64,000 nucleotides of DNA from Methanotrichaceae archaeon (GTDB lineage Archaea; Halobacteriota; Methanosarcinia; Methanotrichales; Methanotrichaceae), in contig CAWDLW010000026.1 of the NCBI GenBank assembly GCA_963803145.1, positions 33,288 to 97,287 on the forward strand. The letters run 5' to 3'. Below, piece by piece: positions 30,136-32,206 of the stretch. A program made the translations under genes and the position numbers. Within the stretch, counting starts at the first letter, position 1. Every line of letters starts with the position of its first letter. Below the pieces are notes generated by a model. The model saw only the letters and a list, made by a program, of their open reading frames with translations, made no database searches and was not told where the DNA came from.

Positions 30136-31509
30136 TCACGATATTATTTTGGCGTCATTTCCGATGATCAGTCTATCAAGTCTGCTAACCATTATCAAGA
30201 GCACTGCAGAAACTGCCATACCCAGTAGAGGATATATCTGGCCGAAGAGCAGCGCCGTAGTACCCCCGCCAATAAGCGCAGCCAATGCACCATGCGGCGT
30301 AAGGCCGAGCTGCTTGTGATAAAAGCCTGCTATCACAGGAATAAGCATGCCATTTGTAAAGACTGTATAGACTATCAGGAGTGTTTTAATTATATTCGGC
30401 AGGGAGATCGCTAATATTAGAGCCGAGAATCCAATCAATAAAACTCCAAGCCTTGAGATCGCCATCAGAACTCTCTCACTTGATTTTGGCTTGGCTTTCC
30501 TATAGATATCCAATGTTAGGATTGATGTAGCTGTCATAAGGCTCGTATCTGCAGAAGACATAAAGGCTGCAAGAAGCGCCGCTGCTACTACACCAGCCAT
30601 AGAAGGCGATAAAAGTCCTGTCATAAGCACAGGTATAGCCTGCTCTGGCGATATATTCGGGTAAATGGATCTCGCGAAAATGCCCAATGAAGTTATGAGG
30701 AACGCCAGAGGAATAAGAATAAATGCTGATATCATAGCAGATTTCTTTGCAATCTCTGCGCTTTGTGCCGAGAAGAGGCGCGAGTACATGTCAGGCCCTA
30801 CAAGGTAGACCGAGCCCACAACGATCAGCATGGATGTGACATCCCATATACCCATCTGCGCCGACGTCGGAAAGCTCTGGCGAATAAGTGCGCTTGGCCC
30901 TACAGCATCCATCGACTTTGAGAACAGGATCAGGATTCCAACTATTATTATCAGGAACTGTACTAAGTCGGTTTTTACAACCGATACCTGTCCTCCATGG
31001 ATCGTATAAAGGATGAAGACTGCAGTACAGACTGCCATATAAAAGATTTCACTACCACCGAGAAGCGCAACGAGCACCTTTCCTGAGGCAACTATCTGAA
31101 CTGCGATGACACCAAGCCAAGAGATGGCTATGAGGATGGATGCAACTGCTCTCGCTTTATCCCCATAAAAGGAGCCTACCAGCTCAGGCAAAGTGTAGCA
31201 CCCGGTTGCCCTGATCTTTCCTGCAAATAAAGCCGATAGAACAATAAGGCCCACTGTGCCTGAGAGCATCCACCAGGCGCCAGGGAGGCCCTTGCTGAAG
31301 CCTAGTCCTGCCATGCCTAAAGTAGCGGAAGCACCCAATATGGTGGCACAGAATGTGCCTGTAAGAAGGATAGGTTTTAGGCTTCTGCTGGCAACATGGA
31401 ACTCATCAAGCCCTGGCCTTACTAGTCCTATGGCATCTATAAAAAGCATCAACAACAAATACACTACTACTATTACCGCAGCAATGTTTATGCCCAGGTC
31501 CACGCTCAT
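30136..31509 (-). CDS. Sodium:solute symporter; candidate biotin transporter
   Basis: ATILGASATLG, YTLPEL, GGQVSVVKTD and AAFMSSADT motifs; upstream BirA-like operator. Confidence 0.88.
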   Translation of the reverse strand: MSVDLGINIAAVIVVVYLLLMLFIDAIGLVRPGLDEFHVASRSLKPILLTGTFCATILGASATLGMAGLGFSKGLPGAWWMLSGTVGLIVLSALFAGKIRATGCYTLPELVGSFYGDKARAVASILIAISWLGVIAVQIVASGKVLVALLGGSEIFYMAVCTAVFILYTIHGGQVSVVKTDLVQFLIIIVGILILFSKSMDAVGPSALIRQSFPTSAQMGIWDVTSMLIVVGSVYLVGPDMYSRLFSAQSAEIAKKSAMISAFILIPLAFLITSLGIFARSIYPNISPEQAIPVLMTGLLSPSMAGVVAAALLAAFMSSADTSLMTATSILTLDIYRKAKPKSSERVLMAISRLGVLLIGFSALILAISLPNIIKTLLIVYTVFTNGMLIPVIAGFYHKQLGLTPHGALAALIGGGTTALLFGQIYPLLGMAVSAVLLIMVSRLDRLIIGNDAKIIS

Positions 31510-31524
31510 CTAAGTCCACCGAAG

Positions 31525-31559
31525 ATTGTAAACCCCTTTTGCGGAAGTAGGTTTACAAT
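31525..31559. promoter_or_regulatory. BirA-type operator (bioO-like palindrome)
   Basis: ATTGTAAACC-N15-GGTTTACAAT between the TATA-like TTATAA (31561-31566) and the start codon (31509). Confidence 0.8.
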
Positions 31560-31804
31560 GTTATAAAGCTTGCGCCATAATCTAAGCCATAACATCCTAT
31601 TTCATAACATATATCATAGCCTATGTATGTGCCTCCATAACTTCCAAAGAAGCATTATTCCCTTGATTACTTATCCGAAAATATGAATTATCAGCCAATT
31701 CCATTTGAGTCTTTAAACGGATATAGATAAAATAATTAGGCTTATCTAGATATGCTCTAACTATACACAATCTTTATATTCAAAATATTGCTATAAAGAC
31801 ATGG

Positions 31805-32206
31805 GTGAGTAGGATGGAGCTTCGTTTAGAGAACTATGTTCTCAAGGCATTTCTAGCCTCTACACTTCTATCCCTGGTAATGATAGCGCTCGCTATGGGG
31901 CTGATCTATCTCTTCAAGTTTGGATCATCGCTTCCTGTATCTATAATTTTAATCCTTGCAGCGGTATCCTTCGTCCTTTCGGCATCATTCTTTGAGAGGT
32001 ATGAGGTTGGATCAATAATTTGGTCTATGCTCGTCTCGATAATAATCACGCTCATACTGACACTTATATCCGGAGGCATGATCTACTTCATCTCTCTGAA
32101 CAGGCCTGGCTGGGAGGAAATGCTATCTGGCCTAGCGGTATCCATGATCGTATCTATGACACTCCTTAATTACCTCAAGCGCAGCTTGGGAGAGATTGAA
32201 TACTAA
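31805..32206 (+). CDS. Small 4-TM hypothetical membrane protein
   Basis: Four hydrophobic helices; upstream TTTATA box near 31773. Confidence 0.7.
   Translation: MSRMELRLENYVLKAFLASTLLSLVMIALAMGLIYLFKFGSSLPVSIILILAAVSFVLSASFFERYEVGSIIWSMLVSIIITLILTLISGGMIYFISLNRPGWEEMLSGLAVSMIVSMTLLNYLKRSLGEIEY

Follow-up and report, generated by a model that had tools for sequence, protein, structure and literature searches.

The operator bioO of E. coli and its repressor BirA, a biotin protein ligase (BPL) whose N-terminus forms a helix-turn-helix (HTH) domain, are the closest described counterpart of the locus reported here, and in many bacteria the importer gene bioY is also under BirA control. A BirA regulon and its sites in Bacteria and Archaea were reportedly described by Rodionov, Mironov and Gelfand in 2002, and BirA regulons elsewhere are said by these authors to include genes that are neither biosynthetic nor involved in transport. 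We analysed a stretch of 64,000 nucleotides (the window) from a Methanotrichaceae archaeon (GenBank assembly GCA_963803145.1, contig CAWDLW010000026.1, positions 33,288 to 97,287, corresponding to G000:C26:33288-97287, where G000 is the source genome assembly), in which a BirA-type operator lies in front of a gene for a protein of the sodium:solute symporter (SSS) family. The locus shares with bioO/BirA of E. coli the 9-bp half-sites, a spacer within the range of 14–16 nt and a ligase with an N-terminal HTH, but its target is an SSS transporter instead of the bio biosynthesis genes or bioY. Furthermore, the promoter is archaeal and the operator abuts its TATA box, so that repression would act on the assembly of TBP, TFB and RNA polymerase (RNAP) and not on sigma-70 RNAP. 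The operator itself is of the standard BirA kind, here combined with a promoter of the archaeal type. We consider it likely that the SSS gene encodes a BirA-repressed, probably Na+-coupled biotin importer which replaces BioY in a lineage that does not synthesise biotin. On the sequence comparisons given below, the regulatory half of this proposal appears strongly supported and the half that concerns the substrate well supported.

The prokaryotic biotin importers listed in a review from 2013 are BioY, the S component of an energy-coupling factor (ECF) transporter, and YigM/BioP (PMC4049904). The SSS protein would resemble BioY in its proposed role, the high-affinity uptake of biotin in an auxotroph under the control of BirA, but it belongs to a family unrelated to BioY and YigM (Pfam SSF, secondary carriers with a LeuT fold). 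In the literature covered by our search (open-access papers and bioRxiv, not subscription journals, RegPrecise or SEED) no SSS protein has been connected with biotin uptake in prokaryotes and no biotin transporter with Methanothrix or Methanosaeta, and the words biotin, vitamin, symporter and auxotroph have no occurrence in the comparative genome paper on Methanosaeta (PMC3349665). An earlier mention by Rodionov and co-workers or in regulon databases is possible.

The SSS gene and its upstream region comprise the following features:

30136 to 31509, minus strand: gene for an SSS-family protein of 457 aa, a candidate biotin importer (open reading frame (ORF) with a PF00474 match)
31510 to 31804, no strand assigned: intergenic region with the SSS promoter and the operator; the next ORF (31805 to 32206, plus strand) is divergent
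31515 to 31520, minus strand: Shine-Dalgarno-like GGTGGA, predicted from the sequence, 5 nt before the ATG
31526 to 31558 (31525 to 31559 with the A/T pair), no strand assigned: BirA-type operator TTGTAAACC-N15-GGTTTACAA, with half-sites identical to bioO and conserved upstream of orthologs
31561 to 31567, minus strand: TATA-like box TTTATAA, a putative promoter element, 1 base from the left half-site

The palindrome consists of two half-sites at 31526-31534 and 31550-31558, which are separated by the 15-nt spacer ccttttgcggaagta and can be extended via the A/T pair at 31525/31559; around position 31520 the plus strand reads cgaaga-TTGTAAACC-ccttttgcggaagta-GGTTTACAA-tgttataaagc. A preliminary description of this DNA had placed the palindrome between the TATA-like box and the start codon of the SSS gene and had compared it to bioO, and both statements were borne out. 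In the order of the minus strand, TTTATAA (31567-31561) is followed by 1 base, the palindrome, 16 nt including GGTGGA and the ATG at 31509, and the intergenic region between bioA and bioB of E. coli K-12 contains an exact TTGTAAACC-N16-GGTTTACAA, both 9-bp half-sites being those found at 31526-31558. Since transcription in archaea begins some 25 nt past the TATA box, the start is expected to fall inside the operator, and a protein bound at this position would be able to block transcription initiation. Using TTGTAAACC-N13-17-GGTTTACAA as query, one match was found in the window compared to none in 100 dinucleotide-preserving shuffles. In the whole G000 assembly (4,132,845 bp) the site at the SSS gene is the sole copy without a mismatch; weaker copies amount to two matches with 1 mismatch, two with 2 and six with 3, and the two 1-mismatch matches represent a single site inside a duplicated stretch (C25 and C41).

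To follow the site through the order we used a collection of 105 genomes including G000, which belong to one family and 16 genera (Methanothrix, Methanosaeta, Methanotrichaceae). The best site within 250 nt upstream was determined for 85 ortholog copies from 84 genomes in 14 of the 16 genera; g5 and g15 lie outside this survey, as do about a dozen further genomes with orthologs, mostly fragments or contig-end cases. Sorted by the state of BirA, the copies are distributed as follows:

Genomes with a BirA HTH, 79 copies: 10, 30, 11, 19, 7 and 1 sites with 0, 1, 2, 3, 4 and 5 mismatches, respectively; no site in 1 copy
Genomes whose BPL is intact but lacks the HTH, 5 copies: no site in 5 of 5
G081, birA not assembled, 75% complete, 1 copy: site with 2 mismatches

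Where BirA has its HTH, the motif proposed in the preliminary description thus recurs just upstream of 77 of 79 copies (at most 4 mismatches); where the HTH is missing, it precedes none of five. The background in G000 per 500 bp is 0.0013 sites at up to 3 mismatches, 0.009 at up to 4 and 0.08 at up to 5, so that the lone case with 5 mismatches is not significant on its own. Spacers of 14 nt (n = 30), 15 nt (n = 46) and 16 nt (n = 3) were observed, and their sequences differ between genomes. At G3, T4, A7 and C8 of the left half and at the positions mirroring them, none of the 78 sites with up to 4 mismatches shows any variation; these counts refer to sites that were chosen by the motif itself. 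A motif-free count of 7-mers in the 150 nt upstream of the 85 copies and in 85 control regions gave the same picture, the most frequent words being GTAAACC in 59 vs 0 regions, TGTAAAC in 56 vs 0, TTGTAAA in 55 vs 0 and GTCAACC in 48 vs 1, with the TATA word CTTTATA next in 26 vs 1. With the strict pattern TGTMAACC-N13-16-GGTTKACA, 50 distinct sites were found in 42 of the 105 genomes, compared to one site for the reversed pattern, and 35 of the 50 are located directly upstream of an SSS ortholog according to their coordinates. A TATA-like element abuts the left half-site of the operator in 14 of 18 listed loci and is degenerate, offset or absent in the other four; in G098 (genus g14) a TATA-like run lies within the operator spacer, and in several genera the ATG follows only 2–5 nt past the operator. 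Half-sites that are kept while spacer and flanks have diverged, in 14 genera and in a second family described below, point to selection on the site. Among the genomes examined, G047 is the sole one with a BirA HTH and no site at its SSS ortholog. Here (L103/L089, G047:C121) the ortholog is immediately preceded by a transposase-like ORF, at the place where the operator would be expected.

No BirA HTH match was obtained for 9 of the 105 genomes. In G034, G043, G045, G061 and G083, which form a sub-clade of genus g13, the BPL aligns only from about residue 57–67 of the G000 protein onwards, no HTH is found upstream in the open frame of the BPL, and no site with up to 5 mismatches precedes the SSS ortholog, the gene itself being kept. 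In G081, G039 and G077 (59–80% complete) no BPL domain was detected at all, and in G052 the BPL is interrupted by a contig end. The operator has been lost exactly where the DNA-binding domain of BirA has been lost, and the transporter gene has been kept, which points to BirA as the partner of the site. Apart from G081, which has a site and in which birA is not assembled, sites at the SSS gene were seen solely alongside a BirA that has the DNA-binding domain. The continued presence of the SSS gene in the HTH-less clade is what one would expect of a transporter for which there is still a need and which would have become constitutive. As additional observations on this clade (L081-L085 for G043, G045, G034, G061 and G083, as well as L075, L076, L078, L086 and L087), the upstream regions of its five genomes are alike and have kept a TATTTAAAT box, and the BPL of G083 is split into two frames.

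The preliminary description had suggested a look for a BirA with an N-terminal HTH and for bioY, and in G000 (99.3% complete, 6.8% contamination) the former was found and the latter was not. Its single BPL has 322 aa (PF03099, 74.5 bits) and aligns end to end with models of bifunctional BirA. Residues 10–70, directly before the ligase domain, match birA_repr_reg (TIGR00122) with 56.4 and 53.3 bits, under the cut-off of 70, and the rest of the protein matches birA_ligase (TIGR00121) with 206 bits (cut-off 83.1). The birA gene is located directly downstream of the gene for a biotin carboxylase subunit, and the genome encodes one protein with a biotinyl domain in an open frame of 574 aa. BioY was not found in G000, and neither BioB nor BioD was found above cut-off, the best matches being 35.9 bits (cut-off 225) and 29.7 bits (cut-off 83.3), respectively. 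Judged by this gene content, G000 appears to use biotin with no recognisable route for its synthesis and without the usual importer BioY. The same holds for its relatives, as BioY was detected in none of the 105 genomes of the order and BioB above cut-off in just one (G039, 80% complete and without an SSS ortholog). These results indicate that the whole order would be auxotrophic for biotin and without BioY, although no search for YigM-type proteins was made. Without BioY and BioB the order needs a biotin importer, and the SSS gene is the one that almost always carries the operator. The preliminary description had left room for biotin or a precursor as substrate, of which biotin is now favoured and a precursor is not, since dethiobiotin and earlier precursors would be useless to a cell that lacks BioB, as do the genome and the order; biotin itself is therefore the likely substrate. 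Regarding the distribution of the two partners, a BirA HTH match was obtained in 96 of the 105 genomes. The SSS query matched 103 of 105 (E up to 1e-20), the best match being a paralog of about 27% identity in eight of them; true orthologs or fragments thereof (46–92% identity) are present in 95 genomes, in addition to an N-terminal fragment at a contig end in G062. Many of the ortholog loci lie on contigs of 3–10 kb.

The 457-aa protein matches Pfam SSF (PF00474) over the full length of the profile (E 5.9e-36, positions 1–406 of 406), and its public names read ‘sodium:solute symporter family protein’ or similar. Its score against TIGR00813 is 127.3 bits, under the cut-off of 184, and no NCBIfam equivalog is reached. 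Membership in PanF (TIGR02119) and PutP (TIGR02121), the two best candidates, was rejected with 93.6 bits vs a cut-off of 328 and 90.1 bits vs 515.5. PanF, a Na+/pantothenate symporter, is the best-scoring specific prokaryotic SSS model and resembles the SSS protein as a vitamin carrier of similar length, but the protein is not a member of it. The motif MSSADT is invariant in ten of ten aligned orthologs and its residues S318-S319 align with MSS of human SGLT1, a pair of serines which we take to be part of the Na2 site in transmembrane helix 8 (TM8). Na+ coupling of the SSS protein appears plausible from this sequence. When a profile of ten orthologs was compared with SSS sequences of solved structure, vSGLT reached 97.3 bits, a choline transporter 94.6, SGLT1 93.7, SiaT 69.4, NIS 55.9 and SMVT (26va) 37.8 bits (E 8.7e-9). 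The mammalian SMVT (SLC5A6), which transports biotin, pantothenate and lipoate with Na+, had been brought in by the preliminary description as the eukaryotic biotin carrier of the SSS family. The common superfamily stands, but no orthology does, as the 37.8 bits have to be compared to 97.3 for vSGLT and 94.6 for the choline transporter. Membership in the SMVT/SLC5A6 subfamily was accordingly rejected, with SMVT in 15th place of 18 matched solved sequences behind SGLT, CHT, SiaT and NIS. As SMVT is not a close relative, biotin specificity, if the archaeal protein does carry biotin, would have arisen independently within the SSS family.

Outside the family, orthologs are rare. In an evenly sampled collection of 401 genomes of the phylum, again including G000, SSS matches with E up to 1e-50 were restricted to G000, 12 of 12 sampled genomes of the family and one other genome, G313 from family f6, whose ortholog is 43% identical. 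The promoter of this ortholog consists of TTTTATAAA, 6 bases, TAGTTAACC-N13-GGTTTACAA, 5 bases and the ATG. The site is the sole match to the relaxed core in its genome, which has a BirA HTH and in which BioY was not found. Within f6, 73 of 81 genomes have BioY; none of the five in the genus of G313 does. A one-genome-per-species scan gave 80 loci, of which the last 16 were scanned for the site; three archaeal-type loci (L187, L192 and L197) carry it. The site of L192 is identical to that of G313 and may represent the same locus, and it was counted once. L187 is an unusual case, as about 1.5 kb of Methanothrix-like DNA is found on a contig of 1.23 Mb labelled Candidatus Roizmanbacteria (Patescibacteria). 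Besides a neighbouring ORF of 134 aa and an operator (1 mismatch), the stretch includes the SSS gene up to about codon 287 (66% identity); the ORF that comes next is unrelated. Either a chimeric assembly or the transfer of a fragment could account for it. The bacterial orthologs (42–47% identity) come from metagenome-assembled genomes (MAGs) of Dehalococcoidia, Chloroflexia and Thermodesulfobacteriota. Inspection of the translations by eye suggests varied neighbours, which resemble FabH and MBL-fold hydrolases in L189, L191 and L193 and RibH in L199 and L200; about 650 nt upstream of the ortholog contain no convincing ORF in L194, L195 and L198.

From these data we infer that BirA binds the site at 31526-31558 in dependence on biotinyl-5'-AMP and represses the SSS gene; transport of biotin by the SSS protein would be suggested by the regulon together with the auxotrophy and the lack of BioY. 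According to the proposed mechanism, the palindrome would serve as operator for a bifunctional BirA, which would be both a repressor and a biotin protein ligase of group II. With ample biotin, this BirA would carry biotinyl-5'-AMP and dimerise on the two GTAAACC half-sites. Since the operator starts 1 base past the TATA box and spans the position predicted for transcription initiation, bound BirA would keep the archaeal pre-initiation complex from forming on the SSS gene. Under biotin shortage, the adenylate would be consumed on the apo-carboxylase, the operator would be vacated and the symporter would be made, which would then serve as the biotin importer of the cell, probably Na+-coupled, in place of BioY.

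Several results weigh against this proposal. The HTH match of BirA lies under the curated cut-off in 103 of the 105 genomes of the order, and the SSS protein meets the cut-off of no specific family and is far from SMVT, so that its sequence by itself gives no substrate. Five genomes of the order that are 91–99% complete (G026, G046, G065, G088 and G104) have a BirA HTH and no SSS ortholog, and neither BioY nor BioB nor a relaxed-core site was detected anywhere in them. A locus that assembles or bins poorly would fit this joint absence of gene and site, and a second uptake route is possible. The other four genomes of the genus of G313 have neither BioY nor the SSS gene, and a phyletic complementarity of BioY and SSS in f6, which we had considered, is only partly borne out with four of five genomes of this genus lacking both. 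None of the 13 bacterial orthologs among the last 16 of the 80 loci shows a site at up to 5 mismatches within 450 nt, and two of five tested bacterial genomes have a strong BirA HTH and BioY, adjacent on one contig. No relaxed-core match was found anywhere in these two genomes, and their BirA motif may be a different one. The SSS clade is thus not tied to BirA everywhere.

Some of these points can also be read in favour of other explanations, of which three were considered. The symporter might indeed be regulated by BirA and carry pantothenate or lipoate, in the manner of a multivitamin carrier, or else some carboxylate connected with the biotin-dependent pyruvate carboxylase. The best specific NCBIfam match is panF, even if its 93.6 bits are far from the cut-off of 328, and the coexistence of bacterial orthologs with BioY in two of five tested genomes, without a site, would be in line with another substrate, as would the BirA regulons mentioned above that reportedly contain genes outside biosynthesis and transport. 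However, BirA senses only biotinyl-AMP, the panF and PutP scores are nearly equal with neither being specific, and an order without BioY and BioB is in need of a biotin importer, with the operator almost always at the SSS gene; we therefore regard a substrate other than biotin as unlikely. A biotin importer would also be called into question if BirA merely bound a relic site of little regulatory effect and biotin entered the cell by another route, for which the five near-complete genomes without gene and site might be taken as a hint, as might the HTH-less clade with its SSS gene and no site. Half-sites kept against a diverged spacer and flanks in 14 genera and a second family imply selection, though, and the retention of the gene in the HTH-less clade fits a needed, constitutive transporter, which makes a relic quite improbable.

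The palindrome might also be bound by another regulator, for example the two-repeat, HTH-like protein described below, with the resemblance to bioO being coincidental. Similar sites do precede the gene for this protein of 175–189 aa in two genera, and its weak likeness to HTH proteins (Atlas scores of 0.75–0.81) provides leads only. Against this idea, bioO has the same two 9-bp half-sites, the site is lost exactly together with the HTH of BirA (5 of 5), and the full-length two-repeat protein was detected in g1, part of g13 and G003 alone, whereas the operator of the SSS gene was seen in 14 of 14 examined genera. We give this explanation hardly any credence, and BirA-dependent repression of a biotin importer remains our preferred reading.

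Regarding the surroundings of the SSS gene, the divergent ORF (31805-32206, plus strand) encodes 133 aa and has no Pfam match. A Pfam scan of five neighbouring ORFs of the window gave nothing related to biotin, with no family or an unrelated weak one for four of them and GGACT for one, so that the label ‘orphan’ given to the symporter earlier is a fair one. Further BirA-type sites were observed elsewhere in the order. The 1-mismatch site of G000 (C25:157341-157373, duplicated at C41:1435-1467) lies between the genes for a two-repeat protein and a methyltransferase dependent on S-adenosylmethionine (SAM). The several-kb stretch around it is duplicated in G000 on C25 (about 155.9–159 kb) and C41 (1–3.1 kb), and the G000 assembly has 4.13 Mb compared to 3.0–3.3 Mb in the two genomes of the same genus, with 6.8% contamination, which hints at the presence of two strains or at a repeat that was collapsed in different ways. 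The two-repeat protein of genus g1 has 181–189 aa with two internal repeats, and the 1-mismatch site is kept in three of three genomes (L209, L210 and L211). No Pfam or NCBIfam match was found for this protein, and the HTH leads from Atlas are weak, as mentioned above. A BirA-type site is located upstream of 9 of 11 listed full-length or near-full-length two-repeat orthologs, namely the three g1 copies and those of G050, G053, G066, G092, G071 and G090 from g13 (further loci: L214-L219), and no site with up to 3 mismatches precedes the gene in G072 and G080. According to the coordinates the gene lies within ~1 kb of the SSS gene in G050, G053, G066, G092, G072 and G080. On this pattern of sites, the gene for the two-repeat protein likely belongs to the BirA regulon as its second member. 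An SSS ortholog is missing from G003 (76% complete), but this genome has retained a TATA box and a BirA-type site closely resembling the SSS promoter (L108, G003:C5:526965-526994), here 64 nt before a gene for a CMD-family (carboxymuconolactone decarboxylase-like) protein of 149 aa, with a fragment of the two-repeat gene ~700 bp away.

Two smaller elements were observed in addition. Directly downstream of the SSS gene of G050, G053 and G066 lies an ORF for a strongly hydrophobic protein of 52 aa (MQTSGM...), which comes with a TATA box of its own, a BirA-type site with 2 mismatches and a Shine-Dalgarno-like sequence (about 2870–3115 in L018, oriented; L215:1031-1189; L217:1044-1202), and its product could be an accessory subunit of the transporter. 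A small unit of ~70 nt is found in genus g13 with 11 copies in eight genomes (L018, L020, L023, L024, L111, L112, L121, L122 and L215-L217) and consists of a TATA box, a BirA-type site with the conserved spacer GCCCAAYGCYATGG, a stretch of ~45 nt that is likewise conserved and, after it, a hairpin with a T-rich run. Two pairs of the hairpin show compensatory changes, no conserved reading frame was found in the unit, and it gave no Rfam match at E up to 1. Six genomes carry it as a tandem copy 150–240 bp upstream of the SSS promoter and two on another contig; G000:C38:10701-10734 is a possible counterpart. A small RNA under the control of BirA is one possible interpretation of the unit, a decoy operator another. 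A wider scenario, in which SSS would have replaced BioY and a BirA network would comprise the two-repeat protein, the 52-aa membrane peptide and, with the ~70-nt unit, a first BirA-controlled small RNA, is tentative and we are inclined to doubt it.

In summary, the data single out this one family of SSS genes as the candidate for the missing biotin importer of the order. If this is true, it would be a third, unrelated family of prokaryotic biotin transporters beside BioY and YigM, the families named in the review cited above (PMC4049904), with no search for YigM-type proteins having been made here. It would also mean that biotin transport arose twice, independently, within the SSS family, the other case being animal SMVT. 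Moreover, the locus would be among the cleanest cases of a bacterial-type pair of repressor and operator acting on an archaeal TATA promoter, and the clade that has lost BirA HTH and operator alike lends itself to comparison. In digesters, wetlands and rice soils, Methanothrix (Methanosaeta) and related archaea count among the principal methanogens living on acetate, and the acquisition of vitamins shapes their dependence on partner organisms as well as their cultivability.

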